From the IMG/VR virus record IMGVR_UViG_2541047719_000008: a stretch of 55,177 bases of DNA. One strand, given 5' to 3'. The notes under the pieces are model-generated. The model searched no databases. It had not been told where the DNA came from and worked only from the letters and a program-made list of their open reading frames with translations. Source of the DNA: a virus (lineage: Duplodnaviria > Heunggongvirae > Uroviricota > Caudoviricetes). Below are positions 4,081-55,177 of this stretch, piece after piece; the first letter of the stretch is position 1, and the number at the start of each line of letters is the position of its first letter. A program made the position numbers and the translations under genes.

Positions 4081-4710
4081 TTTGCTGCTCCTCATCATAT
4101 CGACCCTGCAAGGTCGGTTGGTTTCTCCACAAAACAGAGAAGAACACCTGCGGTGGCAGCCGCCCGGATGGATTGGGTTATGAGCCTGTCGTCCGGTGAT
4201 GCTCTTCTCTGTTTTGTAAAAAGAGCGGTACCAGCCGGAAGCAAGTGTACAAACTGGTACCGCCAAAGCAGTGGCTGTTGTGGTGGGGTTGTCACTCAGG
4301 CGTATGGTCAACCTGACAATCCGGTGTCCTCAACGGGGAAAGAGTAACCCCGCCATACTTACCGCCGCGCCATTTCGCGGATTACCACAACGCTGAGAGC
4401 ACTTAGCCAGTTACGGCACCACACTTTGTCGCGGCTCCATAAATGCCCTCATCGTTGCACCCTGGTCTCTTCCCAGGCGTCAAACCGGATCGCCACGCTG
4501 GTTAGGCGTCTTATCAGCATCATCATTGACTTGCACATTCCGGCTACCTGGTTTGTTTGCCCGAGCAAGAAGTGGATTGTCCCCTTTAACGTCCCCAGAC
4601 CGCTAACGACGCATGTGCCATACGCCGTGTTACAACCAAATTTTGTTTGAATCTTGCCTGCCTCATGTTTCTTTTGGATACATTATGTATCTCATGGGTA
4701 CATTGTCAAG

Positions 4711-4736
4711 TATAAAAAAACCTGCCGAAGCAGGTT
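4711..4736 (-). terminator. Rho-independent terminator downstream of the repressor gene
   Basis: Hairpin AACCTGC-CGAA-GCAGGTT; on the minus strand it is followed by a T-run (A-run 4714-4720 on plus), immediately 3' of the repressor stop. Confidence 0.55.
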
Positions 4737-4748
4737 CATAAATATTGA

Positions 4749-5423
4749 TTAGGCCTTTATTGTGTATCTTCTTGGTTTTCCCGAGAAAATCACTGTACCA
4801 ATTATAGAGCAATTACCGTTAATCTTAATGTAAGGCTCAGGCCAGTTTGGGTTTAATGCTTTGAGATAACGCTGTGTTCCATCTTCTATCAATCGCTTGA
4901 AGGTGGTTTCGCCTGTATCGTGCATCAATGCAATAACGTCGTCACCGTGGCAGGCAGGGACTTCGGGATCAACAAAAATCATGTCTCCAGGGCGGTACTC
5001 ATCAATCATTGAATCACCAATCACCCGCAAGATATAAGTCATTTCGCCACAGGGTACAGGGCAGGGATACGTTTCTGCTGTGCTCAAATCAACCTCAGAA
5101 TAGCCAACTTCTTTCCATGCTCCGGCCTGTACCCATGATATGACAGGGACTAACGTTATTTGTTTGTTAGTGATTGAAACATCAGGTTTTTTTGTGATGT
5201 TCGTTGTCTGGTGTTCTTGATCAAGCCATCCGACAGGCAGGTCGAAACATTTTTCGATGTGCCGTGCCATGCTGTCACCGATATTTTTAGTAGCGCCATC
5301 CCCCATAAACCTGCTGGTTTGGGTTGGCTCGCGATCAATCATGGTGGCAAAGGATGAATTTCCGCCAACACCATCTCTCAGTTTTCTGGCGTTAGACCGC
5401 CGGATGTCATGGATTGTTTTCAT
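4749..5423 (-). CDS. Prophage repressor, cI/LexA-like (HTH plus S24 peptidase domain)
   Basis: C-terminal VIGDSM ... PGD(M)IFVD matches the LexA/cI S24 self-cleaving domain; divergently arranged to a Cro-like gene. Confidence 0.75.
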   Translation of the reverse strand: MKTIHDIRRSNARKLRDGVGGNSSFATMIDREPTQTSRFMGDGATKNIGDSMARHIEKCFDLPVGWLDQEHQTTNITKKPDVSITNKQITLVPVISWVQAGAWKEVGYSEVDLSTAETYPCPVPCGEMTYILRVIGDSMIDEYRPGDMIFVDPEVPACHGDDVIALMHDTGETTFKRLIEDGTQRYLKALNPNWPEPYIKINGNCSIIGTVIFSGKPRRYTIKA

Positions 5424-6309: not shown

Positions 6310-7142
6310 ACAGTTTAACGGCAAATAACCGTTTGTCGCAACAGCTGGTGGTCAGTGTCGCTGAACACCTGTTGTTACGGCATGAATGCAGATTACCAAA
6401 TTACCTGGCTGTAAGTAACCACAGAGAACTTTACCTGACTGTGGGGGGCGAGTTGTGCGGGAACTTAACCGCTGGTTTCGTGACGGAAGAGGGCTTTATG
6501 TCCATGTTATTCGTTGGGAACCAGAAACACAGCGCGTTATCTATCTTCGCAAAGACTACCCGCATGAGTGCTTTAGTCCTTTGTGGAAATTCAGGCGTGA
6601 TTTTGTTGAGTGTGAAGGACCACCAGCACATTGATTCTGCCATTCCGGGACGTTACACTGTTCAGGCACCTTATAAAGCGGGTGACGGGATTGGCGTCCT
6701 GGAAATGTTATCGGCGATATATGACGCGCCAGCGTCTTTTTTATCGTCTGCGTCTGTGCACACCCAAATTATGGTGGGCTGGACGGGGGCACCGAAAGGT
6801 GCGCCGGTTTCCGATAACGCCGGTTACGCCAACCCCGTTCAGTTCACCACCAGCGAAATTGGCGTTTCCGGTGGTGAAGGTAATTCACTGTTATCGGAGG
6901 CTGCCATCATGGCTACTGTCCCAGCCCTCACTCGTCTGAATGATGAAGACTTACATAAACTCAGTTATGTAACAACTGCACTACGTGCTCTGCGCAAGGT
7001 AACTCTTTCGGATCCGCAGGCGCATCAGGTTTTGGTAGAAACCCTTCTTAACTTGCAGGCTGAACGTATTCGTCTGGCGGATAAGGCTAATTTTCATATT
7101 CACCGTCTCCTGAATATCAGCGGAGGGCATCGTCATGCTTAA
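6306..7142 (+). CDS. Hypothetical protein of the replication region
   Basis: 278-aa ORF overlapping the stop of the upstream gene; no motif recognised. Confidence 0.35.
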   Translation: MNSLTANNRLSQQLVVSVAEHLLLRHECRLPNYLAVSNHRELYLTVGGELCGNLTAGFVTEEGFMSMLFVGNQKHSALSIFAKTTRMSALVLCGNSGVILLSVKDHQHIDSAIPGRYTVQAPYKAGDGIGVLEMLSAIYDAPASFLSSASVHTQIMVGWTGAPKGAPVSDNAGYANPVQFTTSEIGVSGGEGNSLLSEAAIMATVPALTRLNDEDLHKLSYVTTALRALRKVTLSDPQAHQVLVETLLNLQAERIRLADKANFHIHRLLNISGGHRHA

Positions 7143-13421: not shown

Positions 13422-13720
13422 AAAATTCCTTAATACTGATAACTTGGCGCACTATACACACGTTCCTGAAGAAAGCTATAGTTTTTTGATGGGGTTGAAG
13501 ATGGCTGGATGTCTAAAATAAACATTGCTTCATATGTTCAACTATGCGTTAATGATTGCGTCGGTTTGAAGAACAGACGATATACGAAGTAGTTTACTAA
13601 AGCAGTTCTCATTTCAGGTGTTATTCACTTATTCCTTCTTTGAGTCTCTCCAATTAAGTACGAAGTCGTTTCTGTTATACAAGCCATTTATGCCGAAAGG
13701 CTCAAGTTAAGGAATGTAGA

Positions 13721-13936
13721 ATGTCAAATAAAATGACTGGTTTAGTAAAATGGTTTAACGCTGATAAAGGTTTTGGCTTTATTTCTCCTGTTGATGGTAG
13801 TAAAGATGTGTTTGTGCATTTTTCTGCGATTCAGAATGATAATTATCGAACCTTATTTGAAGGTCAAAAGGTTACCTTCTCTGTAGAGAGTGGTGCTAAA
13901 GGTCCTGCAGCAGCAAATGTCATAATTACTGATTAA
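13721..13936 (+). CDS. cspB: Cold shock protein CspB-like
   Basis: 71 aa [38 protein letters not shown]...; canonical RNP1/RNP2 motifs; long AT-rich leader upstream. Confidence 0.8.
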
Positions 13937-14217
13937 AATTCATAGTTTGTCTGTATACGATAACGAAGAAGGCTGATGCCTGAGTGGAGATACAGACAGA
14001 GTGGTGAATATTGGATCTCTTTAATAAATAGTAAGGAGGTCCAATACATGAAACAATGGCCAGCATATTTGGCAATAACTTAATCAGGAAAAGTATGCTA
14101 ACCATTGTGGTGAAGTGCAGGTTTGCTGCATGAATAGTTTTACAGCAGAAGCTAACTGCTGGCATAGCAAAACAAAGTGCGTAAGTGGATGACTCCCACA
14201 AAAAGTACCACAATATT

Positions 14218-16809: not shown

Positions 16810-17172
16810 ATTAATATTAAATCGGATTATTTTTAGCGCTGAATGTGAAATTTAAATAAAAAGGACTCTTCCATGAGTCAAAATCCTTGAAATCTTAAGG
16901 GTAAGATAAAAGGTCATTAGACAGAATGACACGTTTTATTAATAAATAAAGCTATTGTTTCATTCGTGTGTTTTTCTTTACAAAAGTAATCCTTGCTATG
17001 GTTGGTTAATCATGCGTTAATGGTGTTCTGGTTTGTTACAAAATTATCTGAAGCAGTCATTGTTATAAATTTATTATTTGTACCTCTTGAGATTTCCTTG
17101 TTGGTTTTTCTCTCTGATATTTTTTTTCGGACCATTCTGCCCAAGGGCTAACTTCTTCAAAAGGTAATAATG

Positions 17173-17385
17173 ATGTCTAACAAAATGACTGGTTTAGTGA
17201 AATGGTTTAACCCTGAAAAAGGTTTTGGTTTCATCACGCCGAAAGATGGTAGCAAAGATGTGTTTGTCCATTTCTCAGCTATTCAGAGCAACGATTTCAA
17301 AACGTTAACTGAGAATCAGGAAGTCGAATTTGGTATTGAGAACGGACCTAAAGGCCCCGCGGCTGTTCATGTAGTGGCACTTTGA
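17173..17385 (+). CDS. cspI: Cold shock protein CspI-like
   Basis: [45 protein letters not shown]...; near-identical to CspI by eye. Confidence 0.85.
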
Positions 17386-17590
17386 GGTAGAAAATATTAC
17401 AAACCATATTCACTTTAGATGCCCGTGTTGCCATGGTTCTCAGTATAGAACATCATCTTTTGATGTTTCTGACAGGAATCCTTTCGGGGCAAAATGTATC
17501 TTTTGTAAATCAATGATGATTACATTTGATAATATTTCACAATACTTAAATGTTAGCCGTCTGTCGTTAGATTTAAGAAAGTGAAAATGA

Positions 17591-49227: not shown

Positions 49228-49827
49228 ATGCGTAAATTATGTGCTGTTATTCTGTCTGCAGTAGTCTGGCTGGTCGCCGCTGGTACGCCAGCGAGTGCAG
49301 CAGAGCATCAGTCCACACTAAGCGGCGGGTATCTTCAGTCCCATACTGATATGCCCGGCAACGATGACCTGAAGGGCATTAACGTGAAATACCGTTATGA
49401 ATTTACGGACACGCTGGGGCTGGTGACGTCATTCAGCTATGCAGGAGACAAGAATCGCCAGATTACCCGTTACAGCGATACCCGCTGGCATGAAGATTCA
49501 GTGCGTAACCGCTGGTTCAGCGTGATGGCGGGGCCGTCTGTACGCGTGAATGAATGGTTCAGTGCTTATGCGATGACGGGTGTGGCTTACAGCCGTGTTT
49601 CGACGTTCTCCGGGGATTATCTCCGCGTAACTGACAACAAGGGGAAAACGCACGATGTGCTGACCGGAAGTGATGGCGGTCGCCACAGCAACACGTCTCT
49701 GGCGTGGGGGGCTGGCGTGCAGTTTAACCCGACCGAATCCGTGGCCATTGACCTTGCTTATGAAGGTTCCGGCAGTGGCGACTGGCGCACTGACGGTTTC
49801 ATCGTGGGTGTCGGTTATAAATTCTGA
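49228..49827 (+). CDS. lom: Outer membrane protein Lom (Ail/Lom family)
   Basis: Signal peptide then beta-barrel ending in YKF; matches lambda Lom. Confidence 0.85.
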
Positions 49828-49853
49828 TTAGCCAGGTAACACAGTGTTATGAC

Positions 49854-49882
49854 AGCCCGTCGGTTCAGGCGGGCTTTTTTGT
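49854..49882 (+). terminator. Rho-independent terminator after lom
   Basis: AGCCCG-TCGGTTCAGG-CGGGCT followed by TTTTTTG. Confidence 0.55.
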
Positions 49883-49885
49883 GGA

Positions 49886-52078
49886 GTGGATATGGCAGCA
49901 GTAAAAATCTCAGGTGTGCTGAAAGATGGTGCGGGAAAACCAATACAGAACTGCACTATTCAACTGAAGGCAAAGCGTAACAGCACCACGGTACTGGTGA
50001 ACACGGTGGCCTCTGAAAATCCGGATGAAGCCGGGCGTTACAGCATGGACGTTGAGTATGGCCAGTACAGCGTTATCCTGCTGGTTGAAGGTTTTCCGCC
50101 TTCACATGCCGGAACCATTACCGTCTATGAAGGTTCCAGACCAGGTACGCTGAATGATTTTCTCGGTGCCATGACGGAAGATGATGTCATGCCGGAGGCA
50201 TTGCGTCGTTTTGAGGAAATGGTGGAAGAAGCGGCACGCAACGCTGAAGCCGCCTCTCAGAGCGCAGCGGCGGCAAAGAAATCCGAAACTGCAGCGGCAT
50301 CATCGAAGAACGCGGCGAAAACCTCAGAAACGAATGCAGCTAACAGCGCACAGGCGGCAGCGGCCTCGCAGACTGCATCGGCAAACTCCGCAACAGCAGC
50401 TAAAAAATCAGAAACCAACGCGAAAAATAGCGAGACAGCCGCAAAGACGAGCGAAACCAACGCAAAGTCCAGCCAGACGGCAGCGAAGACCAGCGAAACG
50501 AATGCCAAAGCCAGTGAAACTGCGGCGAAAAGCAGTCAGGATGCAGCGGCCCAAAGCGAGAGTGCCGCAGCCAGTTCTGCAAGCGCGGCGGCTGCTTCTG
50601 CTACTGCATCAGCTAACAGTCAAAAAGCAGCAAAAACCAGTGAAACCAACGCAAAGGTGAGCGAAACAGCGGCTGCGAGCTCAGCGAAAGCATCGGCAGC
50701 AAGCCAGACGGCAGCTAAAGCAAGCGAAGATGCAGCCAGAGAGTACGCAAGCCAGGCTGCGGAGCCGTATAAATATGTCTTACAGCCGCTGCCTGATGTG
50801 TGGATACCATTTAACGATTCGCTGGATATGATTACGGGCTTTTCGCCATCATATAAAAAAATTGTTATTGGTGACGATGAAATAACGATGCCTGGCGACA
50901 AGATTGTTAAGTTTAAACGTGCATCGAAAGCAACCTATATTAACAAATCTGGTGTGCTGACAGAGGCTGCCATTGACGAGCCACGATTTGAACGTGATGG
51001 CCTGCTTATTGAGGGGCAAAGAACAAACTACATGCTCAATTCGGAAAGCCCTGCCAGTTGGGGGCGATCGTCAAATATGGATGTGCCCGAAACAGGGACG
51101 GATAATTTTGGTTTTACCTATGGAAAGTTTGTCTGCAACGATTCTCTGATTGGGCAAACCTCAGCCATTAATATGGCATCAATTGCTGCAACAAAGTCAG
51201 TTGATGTCTCAGGCGATAATAAACACGTGACAACCTCATGTCGTTTTAAAACAGAACTGCAGGTAAGGTTGCGTATCCGGTTTGATAAATATGACGGTAG
51301 CGCAACAACTTTTCTTGGTGATGCGTATATTGATACACAAACGCTTGAAATTAATATGACAGGCGGTGCTGCCTCAAGAATTACAGCGAGAGTCAGAAAG
51401 GACGAAGCTACCGGATGGATTTTTGCAGAGGCAACAATTCAGGCAATTGATGGGGAGTTAAAAATAGGCTCTCAGATACAGTATTCTCCTAAGCAGAGCG
51501 GGGCAACCGTATCTGGTGACTATATTTATCTGGCCACCCCACAAGTAGAAGATGGGCCTTGTGTATCATCTTTTATTATATCAGGAGCGACGGCGGCGAC
51601 CCGCGCAAGCGATATAGTTACAGTTCCAATTAAGAATAATCTTTATAATCTTCCTTTTACGGTTCTTTGTGAGGTACATAAGAACTGGTATAAAACGCCA
51701 AATGCAGCGCCACGTGTTTTTGATACCGGCGGTCATCAAACCGGAGCGGCTATTATTCTTGGCTTCGGTCGTTCAACAGATTACGACGGATTTCCTTATT
51801 GCGATATTGGAGGAGCTAACAGACGGGTAAACGAAAACGCATTGCTTGAAAAAATGGTTATGGGGATGCGTGTAAAGTCAGATCAGTCTACGTGCTCAGT
51901 AAGTAACGGGCGTATATCCAGCCAAACAAAAACCACATGGTCCTATATTCAGAACACCGCAATTATCCGTATTGGAGGCCAAACTACAGCCGGGTTACGT
52001 CATTTATTTGGTCATGTCAGGAATTTCAGAATATGGCACAAGGCATTGACTGATGCTCAGGTGGGGGAGTCAATCTAA
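49886..52078 (+). CDS. stf: Side tail fibre protein with divergent C-terminal receptor-binding region
   Basis: N-terminus MAAVKISGVLKDGAGKPIQNCTIQLKAKRNSTT... matches lambda Stf; central Ala/Ser/Thr-rich repeats; C-terminus is more AT-rich and ends ...RNFRIWHKALTDAQV, reminiscent of LamG-like lectin domains. Confidence 0.8.
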   Translation: MDMAAVKISGVLKDGAGKPIQNCTIQLKAKRNSTTVLVNTVASENPDEAGRYSMDVEYGQYSVILLVEGFPPSHAGTITVYEGSRPGTLNDFLGAMTEDDVMPEALRRFEEMVEEAARNAEAASQSAAAAKKSETAAASSKNAAKTSETNAANSAQAAAASQTASANSATAAKKSETNAKNSETAAKTSETNAKSSQTAAKTSETNAKASETAAKSSQDAAAQSESAAASSASAAAASATASANSQKAAKTSETNAKVSETAAASSAKASAASQTAAKASEDAAREYASQAAEPYKYVLQPLPDVWIPFNDSLDMITGFSPSYKKIVIGDDEITMPGDKIVKFKRASKATYINKSGVLTEAAIDEPRFERDGLLIEGQRTNYMLNSESPASWGRSSNMDVPETGTDNFGFTYGKFVCNDSLIGQTSAINMASIAATKSVDVSGDNKHVTTSCRFKTELQVRLRIRFDKYDGSATTFLGDAYIDTQTLEINMTGGAASRITARVRKDEATGWIFAEATIQAIDGELKIGSQIQYSPKQSGATVSGDYIYLATPQVEDGPCVSSFIISGATAATRASDIVTVPIKNNLYNLPFTVLCEVHKNWYKTPNAAPRVFDTGGHQTGAAIILGFGRSTDYDGFPYCDIGGANRRVNENALLEKMVMGMRVKSDQSTCSVSNGRISSQTKTTWSYIQNTAIIRIGGQTTAGLRHLFGHVRNFRIWHKALTDAQVGESI
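50250..50750. repeat. Low-complexity repeat region within stf (AAKTSETNAK-type repeats)
   Basis: Repeated KTSETNAK / KSSQTAAK / KASETAAK units in the protein; the ORFs called on other frames and on the opposite strand here are artefacts. Confidence 0.5.
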
Positions 52079-52359
52079 TGAAAGATTTAACACTCAAATT
52101 TCCCGACAGGGCCGACTTTTCGGCCTTTATGGAGAGCATTGGCTATTATGATGACGAGTTGATGCAGGATGATATTCTTATTGACGTGATAGGTAACGTG
52201 TACAAAGAAACCGGAGAACTGACTGAAGATGGCGAACCGGTATGTGTTAAGGAAGACGGATATTTTGTAAACGTGCGCATCATTAATGATTCGCAAATAT
52301 CGTCATTATTCGATGAATACGTGGTTGCTGTTGAGCATCAACTTCGTGGCTGGATGTGA
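52078..52359 (+). CDS. Hypothetical protein, possible tail fibre assembly factor
   Basis: 93-aa ORF translationally coupled to stf (start overlaps the stf stop); function inferred from position only. Confidence 0.35.
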   Translation: MKDLTLKFPDRADFSAFMESIGYYDDELMQDDILIDVIGNVYKETGELTEDGEPVCVKEDGYFVNVRIINDSQISSLFDEYVVAVEHQLRGWM

Positions 52360-52368
52360 GGAAGAAAA

Positions 52369-53409
52369 ATGGCTACATCGACAGTAATTCCTGATGACAT
52401 CAAAACGCTAAAATCCGACGTTAGCAAATTAAAAAACGATCAAGGAAGCTACGCAACAAAATTATATGTAGACAGCAAAGATGAAATCGTTGGTGACTGG
52501 TCTGCTTCATGGTATCAGCAGGTATTGCCAACTAGCGGAGCTATATTTGGGAGAAAACTCCGCTCAACTCACAGGACGGCAGGTGTTGAGGATGCGTATT
52601 GCGAACTATACCTCAAAAAATGGATAGACAGTCCAGGTAACGCAATGGCGCGCCTTAACCTGAACGATAACGGGACAAACATTTGCTGGGACTTTACCAA
52701 CCTTTATGGCGGTACGATGATTTTTCCCGGTGACAGCGGATACCTCAAAATGGGTAACTGCCTTATGTCATACAGCAAGCGTGGAAGTAACGCGCTTATT
52801 AAATTTGATTACACCGACACATTACAGATCAAATATGCCAATCATGGGTCAACCATGACATTAAACACACAGGGAACCGCTTATGCTGGTGTTACTGCTC
52901 AATTGTGGGGCAACTCCAGCCGTCCTGTTGTTTATGAAGTCGGTGTTGATGGTGGCGCTTATATGTTCTATGCGCAAAAAAATACCGATAACACCTATAT
53001 GTTAAGCGTTAATGGTGCATGTCATGCCACCGCATTTAACCAGCATTCCGACCGGGATCTGAAAGACAACATTCAGGTGATCGATAATGCAACCGACCGC
53101 ATCCGTAAAATGAACGGCTATACATACACGCTTAAAGAAAACGGTATGCCCTATGCTGGTGTCATTGCACAGGAAGCTCTGGAAGCAATCCCAGAAGTTG
53201 TAGGTTCCGCAATGAAATATCAGGACGGTGCAAGCGGATCGGAAGGTGAAGAAGGTGAACGTTATTACACAGTAGATTATTCTGGTGTTACTGGCTTGCT
53301 TGTTCAGGTAGCCAGAGAGTCAGACGACAGAATAACAGCACTGGAAGAAGAAAACGCAGAATTAAGACAAAGATTATTTGCAATTGAGGCGGCGCTTGCG
53401 TCTAAATAA
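52369..53409 (+). CDS. Second tail fibre/spike protein with C-terminal S74-type intramolecular chaperone domain
   Basis: C-terminal SDRDLKDNIQVIDNATDRIRKMNGYTYTL ... YAGVIAQE followed by a coiled-coil tail, characteristic of self-cleaving chaperone domains of phage fibres. Confidence 0.6.
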   Translation: MATSTVIPDDIKTLKSDVSKLKNDQGSYATKLYVDSKDEIVGDWSASWYQQVLPTSGAIFGRKLRSTHRTAGVEDAYCELYLKKWIDSPGNAMARLNLNDNGTNICWDFTNLYGGTMIFPGDSGYLKMGNCLMSYSKRGSNALIKFDYTDTLQIKYANHGSTMTLNTQGTAYAGVTAQLWGNSSRPVVYEVGVDGGAYMFYAQKNTDNTYMLSVNGACHATAFNQHSDRDLKDNIQVIDNATDRIRKMNGYTYTLKENGMPYAGVIAQEALEAIPEVVGSAMKYQDGASGSEGEEGERYYTVDYSGVTGLLVQVARESDDRITALEEENAELRQRLFAIEAALASK

Positions 53410-53415
53410 TATCAA

Positions 53416-53438
53416 GGGGCCGAGCGCCCCGTTTTATT
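53416..53438 (+). terminator. Hairpin terminator after the second fibre gene
   Basis: GGGGC-CGAGC-GCCCC followed by GTTTTATT. Confidence 0.45.
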
Positions 53439-53745
53439 GGGTAGGATGAAAATGGATATAACACCTTTCCTTCATGCGCTTTGTGCTGTGGCTGCGCAGC
53501 TACTGGTTGGTCTTTTTACCGGGAACTGGGCTTACGGGGCGATAGCCGGTTGTACGTTCTTCATTGCGCGTGAACACACCCAGGCGGAATATCGCTGGAT
53601 TGAAATGTTTGGGCATGGCAAGAGGATTAACATGCCGTGGTGGGGCGGTTTTGATCCGCGCGTGTGGGATGTGGCAAGCCTGATGGATTTTGCTGTGCCG
53701 GTGGTGGCGTGTCTGCTGGTCTGGCTGTTGGTTAATCGTGGGTGA
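53437..53745 (+). CDS. Hypothetical small membrane protein
   Basis: 102 aa with two hydrophobic helices; function unknown. Confidence 0.4.
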   Translation: MGRMKMDITPFLHALCAVAAQLLVGLFTGNWAYGAIAGCTFFIAREHTQAEYRWIEMFGHGKRINMPWWGGFDPRVWDVASLMDFAVPVVACLLVWLLVNRG

Positions 53746-53972
53746 AAAAAGGTGAGCTGTATATGCAACGGAGGAAGAAACCCCGTTGCTGGAAGCCTGG
53801 AAAAAGTATCGGGTGTTGCTGAACCGTGTTGATACGTCAACTGCACAGGATATTGAATGGCCAGCACTGCCGTAGGGTAAAACATATAAATTCTATAATT
53901 AGATGTATCTTTCCATTTACGGCAAGGAAGGGGGCTTGGAAGACGTAAAGCATCTCACACCGAGATTATTTT

Positions 53973-54563
53973 TTATATGTCAGGTGTCTGAAGTTTTGCT
54001 TTGGCTCTTAAAATGGTTTGCCGCGAGGTTTTGAATTCCCGGGCAATGGCACTTATACTTACACCTGACTTAATTCGTTCGAATACCACCTGTTTCTGTT
54101 CTTCATTTAACACAGGTGGTCGACCAAAACGTTTCCCTGCGCCCCGGGCTCTTACTATCCCGGAATGAGTGCGTTCAAGTAAAAGGTCTCGTTCAAATTC
54201 AGCGACTGCTGAAATTACTTGCATCATCATTTTTCCTGTTGGACTGGTCAGGTCAATGCCCCCCAATGCTAAGCAATGCACTCTGATACCTGTTTCGGTC
54301 AGTTGTTCCACTGTTTTCCTGATATCCATTGCATTACAACCAAGGCGATCCAGTTTTGTCACAATCAATTGATCACCACATTTCAGGCGAGCAAGCAACC
54401 GGTTAAAACCAGGACGCTCACTGGTTGCTGCTGAGCCGCTAATGTGTTCTTCGATTATTTGCTGAGGTTTGATTTTAAAGCCTGCACTTTCGATTTCCCG
54501 GCGTTGATTTTCGGTGGTCTGATCCAGAGTTGATATCCGACAGTAAGCAAAAATTCGAGACAT
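53973..54563 (-). CDS. pin: Serine recombinase, DNA invertase (Pin/Hin/Gin family)
   Basis: 196 aa starting [20 protein letters not shown] with catalytic Ser near the N-terminus and a C-terminal HTH; matches the Pin-type invertases of E. coli cryptic prophages. Confidence 0.85.
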
Positions 54564-54943
54564 AGTGAGACTCTATACGAAATTGGTGTACATATCATAA
54601 TGCATATCCAAAAATTATTTCGCTTATTATTGCACATATTTGTATGTATACGTTCGAAAATAAACAAATTCGGATGCAGTCCCGTAATTTTGGTGTAACC
54701 TAAAATCGATTTTTTGAAAAATGGCTTTAACTCGGTTTGTTTTTCGAACTCCGGGCGGACTCGAGAAAGACGAATAATAGTGTTGTATGTTGTTTTAGCC
54801 AGATTTCAATTTGTTTGGTCTTGGAAAAGTGGAGCAAAAAGTTGTTAAAGTGGAAAAATGGTAAAAAAAGTAGGTTGTTGCGGAATAACGTAGTTGTTGA
54901 TATTTTTTAATGCATTGAAAAATTATTTTTCAGGGGGTGTTTA

Positions 54944-55177
54944 TTACACTTTACCATTTAAATTTTGGTTGTCTTTAAGAACTGATATCGCTGTTTGTAA
55001 TAATTCTTTGTTATCCAGCCATGACTTTTTCTTTATGTTTCCTTCAATGTAATCAAGCAATGTTCTGGTATTGATAGGTCTTCCCTGTTTTGCCACTTCC
55101 ACGACAGCATCTCCCAGGATAATTCTGACTTCAGGAAGCTGCGCGGGGAACCACTTTAGGGTGTCATTTGATTTCAT
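54944..55177 (-). CDS. Hypothetical protein (start codon at the last three bases of the window)
   Basis: 77-aa ORF; AT-rich; no motif recognised. Confidence 0.3.
   Translation of the reverse strand: MKSNDTLKWFPAQLPEVRIILGDAVVEVAKQGRPINTRTLLDYIEGNIKKKSWLDNKELLQTAISVLKDNQNLNGKV

Follow-up and report, generated by a model that had tools for sequence, protein, structure and literature searches.

The side tail fibre locus next to pinR in a lambda-like Escherichia coli prophage: probable variation by cassette exchange rather than by inversion

Does a recombinase gene next to tail fibre genes make the fibres switchable? The question is raised by the right-hand part of a 55,177-nucleotide (nt) stretch of tailed-phage DNA (IMG/VR record IMGVR_UViG_2541047719_000008; the whole stretch is called the window below), where the side tail fibre gene stf and a second fibre gene are followed by the convergent gene of a small serine recombinase, PinR. 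A first-pass annotation, made from the sequence alone, described these genes and suggested that they might form an invertible segment of the kind known from Mu, P1 and e14. Every open reading frame (ORF) that it described is present where it was placed, and its interpretation holds in that Stf is a mosaic, that its C-terminal fold is LamG-like and that the second fibre has an S74 domain, but not with regard to the invertible segment. A recombinase gene beside fibre genes should not be taken for an inversion switch unless crossover sites and alternative exons on the opposite strand exist as well. We consider it very likely that the late operon (J-lom-stf...) of a lambda-like Escherichia coli prophage has its right end here, in a mosaic side tail fibre locus that varies by cassette exchange and not by inversion, and in which PinR is an orphan.

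Tests for an invertible segment

Four anatomical requirements of the Mu, P1 and e14 systems were tested, with phage D108 and e14 serving as positive controls; the lambdoid phage HK225, which has a Gin-like invertase, was dropped as a control since its annotation shows no inverted fibre genes. Scoring against the consensus TTNTCNNAAACC-NN-GGTTTNNGANAA recovered the controls, gix of D108 at 15-16/18 and pix of e14 at 17/18, whereas the best gix/pix/hix-type site between 49000 and 55177 reached 12/18, which equals the shuffle median, and the best of the whole window 13/18. A scan for a pix-like pattern gave zero matches, AAACCNNGGTTT with two mismatches or fewer does not occur past 47152, and no site-I core of the transposon type was found in the window either. 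The inverted repeats of ~26 bp resembling gix, hix or pix, which the first-pass annotation had proposed to look for, are therefore missing.

The longest inverted repeat is a perfect 16-mer with its arms at 49241-49256 in lom and at 53326-53341 in the second fibre gene. It was weighed seriously since the perfect repeat of e14 pix is 16 nt long too, and it brackets the DNA from lom to the fibre gene at a locus where, as in Mu, P1 and e14, a serine recombinase gene stands beside tail fibre genes. A functional switch in which PinR flips fibre DNA between sites of this sort, too degenerate or too unlike gix and pix to be recognised, is nevertheless highly improbable and largely refuted. Inverted repeats of 16 nt or more arose in 26 of 300 Markov-1 shuffles. 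The two arms behave independently of each other, the right one being kept in PhiR63_1, which has no lom, and at 14 of 16 positions in ESCO3, and the left one being absent from other lom alleles. They show neither dyad symmetry nor an AAACC..GGTTT core, and inversion between them would disrupt two genes, lom and that of the second fibre, and yield no new ORF. For these reasons the pair was rejected as coincidental.

Two further candidates were discarded. An imperfect 18-nt repeat (51155-51172 and, within pinR, 54454-54471; 16/18 complementary) contains CAAACC (AAACC) but no paired GGTTT and no dyad, and was judged to be due to chance. A near-perfect 22-bp AT-rich palindrome, ATTTTTTAATGCATTGAAAAAT, at 54902-54923 just past the ydfK stop codon, is unique in the window and so has no partner site.

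Nor does the minus strand carry alternative C-termini or tfa copies. Searches of the window by tblastn with StfR, TfaR, the StfE, StfP, TfaE and TfaP proteins of e14, the S and U proteins of D108 and the window's own fibres found plus-strand copies only, apart from one match at chance level (E 0.009), and the list of ORFs contains no sizeable minus-strand ORF with fibre features.

A single orientation was seen throughout. In a census with an 80% coverage threshold the whole locus was collinear in 68/68 E. coli genomes and in three phage genomes, and so was the part from the fibre 3' end through pinR in 170/170 genomes. Nine further contexts, including EC190759, A10, TUM9803, pPEC1013-3, IAI39, phage 21 and ESCO3, show the same one order. 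A published BLAST survey detected inversions in e14 and none in Rac or Qin (PMC12529663). In addition, cassette and PinR are for the most part met with separately, and roughly two thirds of the cassette carriers have no adjoining pinR. With no sites, no significant repeats, no opposite-strand exons and one orientation, the suggested segment of Mu/P1/e14 style is not borne out. PinR is an orphan at this locus, which offers it neither crossover sites in cis nor inverted coding alternatives; catalytically competent or not, it has no substrate here.

Several points weigh against this conclusion. The assemblies examined were finished ones, in which an inversion of low frequency in the population would show up as a single orientation. 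Any genome in which a sub-segment is inverted would miss the 80% coverage threshold; the nine sampled contexts exclude such genomes, though not exhaustively. As PinR is far from the Hin family, its native site may differ from gix and pix, and a site of unknown type would be beyond the reach of the scan. What orf93, orf102 and the second fibre do in the virion, discussed below, is inferred, and the AlphaFold2 model of the second fibre is too poor to be of help, with a predicted local distance difference test score (pLDDT) of 59.

A host-range cassette in a Rac-type backbone

If inversion does not vary the fibres, what does? Homology to K-12 Rac (stfR-tfaR-pinR-ynaE) extends over 49638-50244 and, weakly, over 50290-50421, and then nothing is found before 53764-55177, where the flank has 91% nt identity to the Rac arm. 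Within the interval, phage 21 is homologous over 50757-51725 and 53443-53821, and the virulent Nonagvirus vB_EcoS_ESCO3 over 50783-53345 at 94% nt identity. The starts of these two homologies, at 50757 and 50783, coincide with a drop in GC content within stf, from 0.54 (49886-50750) to 0.44 (50751-52078), as expected from the earlier remark that the C-terminal part of the gene is AT-rich; GC remains at ~0.42-0.44 across the two genes after stf. Elsewhere, homologues of the C-terminal module are joined to anchors of the PF08400 or the P2 type (PF03406/PF12571), or have no anchor at all. Based on the limits of the Rac, phage 21 and ESCO3 homologies and on these anchor swaps, we therefore propose that a cassette took the place of the distal part of Stf and of most of tfa within a backbone of the Rac type. 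The break in Rac homology, the 94% sharing with ESCO3 and the fusion to other anchors also support the first-pass idea of a horizontally exchanged receptor-binding domain. The Stf anchor and repeat shaft, and PinR likewise, would belong to the Rac/lambda-type backbone, and the DNA from ~50757-50783 to 53763 would be a self-contained host-range cassette of lower GC, comprising tandem LamG-like Stf heads, orf93, a short fibre with an S74 chaperone and a small membrane protein.

The whole locus is present at 97-99% nt identity in phages PhiR63_1, Tritos and HannyBb and in the 68 E. coli genomes, and a match in phage 2G7b covers 76% of the query. The second fibre gene occurs in ~512 E. coli genomes, and in ~170 of them (about a third) pinR adjoins it. 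What comes after the cassette depends on the context, and may be pinR, sitDCBA or partition genes of the N15 type (sopA/parB). Since the recombinase stands alongside in only ~170 of the ~512 carriers and a virulent Nonagvirus has the cassette too, it seems to be the replacement of cassettes by homologous recombination that changes the host range. Cassettes or alleles may be swapped in this way at conserved junctions, of which one is the Stf shaft, one the opening 44 nt of the gene for the second fibre and one the 3' end of tfa. This mosaicism fits the published description of the lateral fibre loci of small siphoviruses, which are variable downstream of the conserved 5' end of their first gene, encode either a single protein or several, and have O-antigen binding as their presumed role (PMC8594841). 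The plasmid pPEC1013-3, a linear N15-like prophage with protelomerase and sopA/parB, carries the fibre cassette without PinR.

The module is thus an ordinary and known one, already annotated in several phage genomes and in hundreds of E. coli genomes, a standard case of tail fibre mosaicism with little at stake. Its portability is what may be of use: a cassette of LamG-head Stf, orf93 and S74 short fibre with conserved junctions, common to temperate lambdoids, an N15-like plasmid prophage and a virulent Nonagvirus, is relevant for the engineering of lambda-based particles with new host ranges.

The gene stf (49886-52078, plus strand) encodes 730 amino acids (aa) from a GTG at 49886, while relatives in RefSeq start six bases later at the ATG at 49892; a match to phrog_1419 ('tail protein') runs from aa 185 to the C-terminal aa 730. 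Its virion anchor (49898-50287) is of the lambda Stf type. PF08400 ('prophage tail fibre N-terminal') covers aa 5-134 in Pfam (E 5e-67), PDB entry 9e7m, a solved N-terminal fragment of a tail fibre, matches aa 5-97 (E 1e-49), and the 5' part of the gene shares ~90% nt identity with K-12 stfR as far as 50244, so that the N-terminus is lambda-like as had been stated. The shaft (50288-50770) is rich in Ala, Ser and Thr and has SETNAK-type repeats with a period of 21/42 nt, in tandem at 50411-50529. The closest relatives have ~189 bp (63 aa) more in this array (Stf of K56-43 has 791 aa), a length polymorphism of the shaft repeats.

The exchanged C-terminal module (50771-52075) shows no Pfam match to Laminin_G at E<0.01, whereas a domain search of this part of Stf, as the first-pass annotation had advised, did return the NCBIfam entry NF048003 GTA_spike_fiber ('GTA head spike fibre') on aa 374-574. 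For the structure, an alignment of 50 sequences was drawn from an exhaustive representative search that gave 2023 matches at E≤0.001, and the AlphaFold2 model of aa 296-730 has a pLDDT of 92.3 and a predicted template modelling score (pTM) of 0.88. Compared with the PDB by Foldseek, this model matched baseplate fibre proteins of the Pseudomonas phages Pa193 and E217, and also the tandem laminin LG4-5 pair, the neurexin LNS domain, pentraxins, CBM40 and the lectin-like halves of clostridial toxin binding domains. The Foldseek probability was 1.0 for laminin LG4-5, pentraxins, CBM40 and the toxin Hc lectin domains, and single-domain TM-scores (target-normalised) for pentraxins and CBM40 were 0.5-0.59. 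In this confident model the C-terminus thus consists of two beta-sandwiches of the ConA/LamG type in tandem, and the description of the C-terminal end as LamG-like holds at the level of the fold, though not at that of the Pfam Laminin_G profile. Homologues share the motif GH(V/I)RN(F)RIWHxALTDxQ at the C-terminal end, and the conserved GHVRNFRIWHKALTDAQV is probably what lay behind the earlier remark. It is conceivable that a trimeric Stf, with its N-terminal domain on the tail tip, presents these lectin-like heads, which would probably bind a surface glycan.

The genes that follow include four elements that the first-pass annotation had left out, namely orf93, the ORF of a small membrane protein, a tfa remnant and a hairpin. 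orf93 (52078-52359, plus strand; phrog_1361, E 1e-45) encodes a small acidic protein with 21 D/E against 7 K/R residues. A full Tfa chaperone directly downstream of stf, as in the lambda-type pairing of Stf and Tfa, is absent, and a 36-codon C-terminal stub is all that is present. The homologue of orf93 follows this type of Stf in phage 21, ESCO3, IAI39 and the other contexts read, and because it always accompanies this Stf type, orf93 may replace Tfa as a fibre assembly or accessory factor.

The second fibre (52369-53409, plus strand) is a short one of 346 aa (phrog_4563 tail fibre, E 4e-220) that ends in an intramolecular chaperone. The S74-type chaperone domain that had been noticed in it was confirmed by PF13884 (Peptidase_S74, aa 227-278, 53047-53202, E 5e-14), which opens with the Ser-x4-Lys dyad of a predicted autocleavage site, Ser227 and Lys232 in the motif SDRDLK (S227-DRDL-K232). 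Across 37 homologues the residues S227, D228, R229, D230, L231 and K232 each show at least 90% conservation. A search of PDB sequences gave a single weak match, 6f45 (E 0.0015). The AlphaFold2 model of the 346-aa chain (pLDDT 59, pTM 0.28) was discarded; such low values are to be expected when an intertwined trimer is modelled as a monomer. The protein would trimerise with the aid of the S74 domain, which would then cleave itself off at Ser227 and leave a mature fibre of ~226 aa. The slot that this gene occupies is allelic. In E. coli IAI39 (positions 4501-5205 of the locus) another fibre, of 234 aa, lies between the same orf93 and orf97 homologues and has only the first 44 nt in common with the present gene (52369-52412), and in phage 21 the slot holds no second fibre. 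The shared 44 nt suggest a conserved N-terminal docking peptide, presumably the first 15 residues, joined to a replaceable distal part.

A terminator-like GC hairpin (53416-53430, plus strand), recognised by a consensus scan, may close the stf-orf93-fibre transcription unit. Behind it lies orf102 (53437-53745, plus strand; 97 aa if read from the ATG at 53452; phrog_1443, E 1e-58), whose hydropathy profile has two hydrophobic segments and whose homologue in phage 21 is annotated as a membrane protein with two transmembrane domains; it could be a moron-like membrane protein. A PADLOC scan of orf93, orf102, PinR, YdfK and the second fibre gave zero matches. The right boundary of the cassette replacement is marked by the 3' remnant of tfa (53765-53875, plus strand), whose 36 codons are 94% identical to aa 156-191 of TfaR; in RefSeq records of relatives it figures as a partial pseudogene of tfa. 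The remnant is a scar of past recombination and has no link with PinR. The stub accompanies the cassette even where sitDCBA and not pinR comes next (A10, TUM9803). Beyond pinR, an ORF at 54944-55177 (minus strand), annotated as ydfK in relatives, belongs to the ydfK/ynaE family and marks a right arm of the Rac/Qin type, the order in K-12 being pinR-ynaE and pinQ-ydfK. Elsewhere in the prophage, Rfam matches comprise two leaders of the cspA thermoregulator type and an isrK / C4-antisense RNA pair (13560-13999, 17026-17431 and 6666-6854).

PinR and its kinship with Tn3-family resolvases

pinR (53973-54563, minus strand) encodes 196 aa with Resolvase and HTH_7 domains, and 563 bp separate its stop codon from that of the convergent fibre gene. 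The first-pass annotation, which had placed a Pin-family invertase 560 bp downstream of the fibres, was right as to the recombinase, which does not, however, belong to the Hin/Gin/Cin/PinE clade. The protein is identical to K-12 PinR at 196/196 residues and to PinQ at 194/196 (99%), but to PinE at 39% and to Gin (D108) and Cin (P1) at ~36% (tblastn). Members of the Hin/Gin/Cin/PinE clade are ~60-70% identical to one another. Both the near-identity to PinR and PinQ and the position of the gene, convergent after the fibre genes and before ynaE/ydfK, mark it as a PinR/PinQ recombinase of Rac/Qin-type lambdoid prophages.

Outside Escherichia, the nearest relatives of PinR are resolvases of Tn3-family transposons. 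With each species represented by a single genome, a scan detected relatives with 60-78% identity in Shewanella, Photorhabdus, Erwinia, Budvicia, Mycoavidus and others. In Shewanella glacialipiscicola (NZ_JAKILU010000017) a 77%-identical recombinase stands head-to-head with a Tn3 DDE transposase (PF01526 tnpA, E 1e-148), both enclosed by 33-nt terminal inverted repeats, and the same repeat occurs at the Photorhabdus and Budvicia loci. The homology to Tn3-family elements takes in pinR together with ~80-115 nt upstream; by blastn it reaches 54642, and the ~115 nt upstream of the gene (54564-54678, minus strand) align to transposon res with 78-83 matches in 118-121 columns, compared with a shuffle mean of ~65 (standard deviation 3.4, z about 4-5). 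The res-like region (54574-54676, minus strand) thus appears homologous to the res of the tnpA-tnpR intergenic region, with most half-sites eroded, as the half-site TGTACGAAA at one mismatch or fewer is found once upstream of pinR versus 3-8 times in the transposons. In the window there is no tnpA remnant (tblastn), no sequence like the terminal inverted repeats within 10 mismatches and, over its 55 kb, no second res-like copy.

Two side observations concern the relatives of PinR. In Erwinia oleae two PinR-like genes lie head-to-head (1299-1916 and 1991-2618) with several TGTACGAAA half-sites between them. Contigs assigned to metagenome bins of Alistipes, Draconibacterium and Caldithrix encode proteins 99-100% identical to E. 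coli PinR and are probably mis-binned fragments of E. coli prophages.

The catalytic set of PinR is incomplete. Of the residues known from Tn3 resolvase (Y6, R8, S10, D36, R68 and R71), PinR has counterparts in Y7, R9, S11, E39 and R73, but has Cys76 in the place of R71 (codon 54336-54338, minus strand; the last residue of the motif KLDRLGC). All transposon relatives compared have Arg at this position, as do 113 of the 120 cluster representatives with 77% identity or more; the large PinR/PinQ clusters are among the five that have Cys, and Cys76 is found in 14/14 intact PinR copies compared from E. coli, Shigella and phage genomes. In Tn3 resolvase the substitutions R71A and R71K abolished recombination and lowered cleavage ~1000-fold while DNA binding was retained (PMC2794168). 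The ratio of nonsynonymous to synonymous substitutions in pinR was uninformative, since the copies differ by 5 nt or fewer.

What, then, may PinR do? One proposal, which we regard as unlikely, is that it acts in trans, flipping the P segment of an e14-type element elsewhere in the host chromosome such that a chimeric Stf blocks the adsorption of other phages, a role unrelated to the adjacent cassette. Over-production of PinQ was reported to raise inversion of the e14 P segment from ~30% to 88% and to protect against T2, and PinR was stated to be equivalent (PMC12529663); the protein encoded here is 100% PinR and 99% PinQ. It is also conceivable that sites are cross-recognised, as the site-I core of the transposons (CGAAACC..GGTTTCG) resembles the pix core CGAAAACCTTGGTTT. 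Yet in the same report deletion of pinE locks the P segment, hence PinE is required, and PinQ and PinR are not known to recombine DNA in vitro. The Cys at the R71 position, where exchange of the Arg for Ala or Lys abolishes recombination, speaks against an active enzyme as well, and the presence of e14 in the host is not visible from the window. Cys76 is not easy to square with the view, put forward in print, that inversion of e14 DNA is the work of PinQ itself.

Alternatively, and we put this forward tentatively, PinR may be a captured tnpR+res module of the Tn3-family type that has lost recombination and has been kept as a DNA-binding autoregulator or modulator of other invertases, or else is a recent relic. 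The relatives beside Tn3 DDE transposases within terminal inverted repeats, the homology that spans the gene and the res-aligned DNA upstream, the one good half-site, the missing partner for a res-like site across 55 kb and the Cys in place of the Arg all point this way, and the R71 mutants of Tn3 resolvase set an example of binding without recombination. On the other hand, PinR scored slightly higher with Gin (105 bits) than with gamma-delta/Tn3 resolvase (83 bits) in searches of PDB sequences, the gene is undamaged and hardly varies among the 14 intact copies, parts of the locus that include it match most E. coli genomes, and a phenotype has been published for both deletion and over-production of pinQ. 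For the effect of a Cys at the R71 position no measurement was found in any serine recombinase. Extended to the clade, the same tentative reading, to which we give less than even confidence, is that PinR and PinQ descend from a captured Tn3-type resolvase with an eroded res and a lineage-specific change of Arg to Cys, that they may carry out no recombination of their own either here or at e14, and that the effect of PinQ on e14 may be indirect, through PinE, for example by hetero-oligomers or by competition for sites. The ancestry of PinR, its decayed res and Cys76 bear on how the 2025 report of PinQ-driven inversion in trans is interpreted, which is a modest side observation.

Comparison with known systems

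With the G segment of Mu and D108 (Gin), the C segment of P1 (Cin) and the P segment of e14 (PinE) the locus has in common a gene for a small serine recombinase beside tail fibre genes and a variation of host range. Those systems have two 26-bp inverted crossover sites, a second set of fibre C-terminus and tfa on the opposite strand and a recombinase of the tight Hin/Gin/Cin/PinE clade, and the window has none of the three.

To the tnpR+res of Tn3-family elements, such as that in S. glacialipiscicola, the window is alike in its 77%-identical recombinase, in the res-like region upstream and in a conserved recognition helix of the helix-turn-helix domain. It differs in having no tnpA and no terminal inverted repeats, in its decayed half-sites and in the Cys that takes the place of the catalytic Arg.

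Among S74 fibres, those of the endosialidase and T5 pb1 types likewise have a Ser-x4-Lys dyad at the start of the S74 domain, whereas the predicted mature part of the present fibre is very short (~226 aa) and has no recognisable anchor domain.

K-12 Rac (stfR-tfaR-pinR-ynaE) and Qin (stfQ-tfaQ-pinQ-ydfK) share with the window the N-terminus of Stf (~90% nt), the last 111 bp of tfa, the convergent pinR and the ydfK/ynaE gene; they have their own distal Stf and Tfa, and the window has instead the LamG-head Stf, orf93, the S74 fibre and orf102. Phage 21 has the same type of Stf C-terminus followed by the orf93 and orf97 homologues, but it lacks the second fibre and continues with sitDCBA. ESCO3 matches the window at 94% nt over the Stf C-terminus, orf93 and the S74 fibre, and yet is a virulent phage of 60 kb with neither orf102 nor PinR. 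Phage 2G7b (NC_049954) has a related side tail fibre locus without the recombinase end. The closest counterparts are Tritos (OV696610), HannyBb (PP925841) and PhiR63_1 (PV340573), which have 97-99% nt identity over 49875-55177 and the same genes in the same order, that is stf, orf93, the S74 fibre, the small membrane protein, the tfa stub, the PinR-type recombinase and the ynaE family gene. The sole difference noted from these lambdoid phage and E. coli prophage relatives is that the Stf shaft of the window is ~189 bp shorter.

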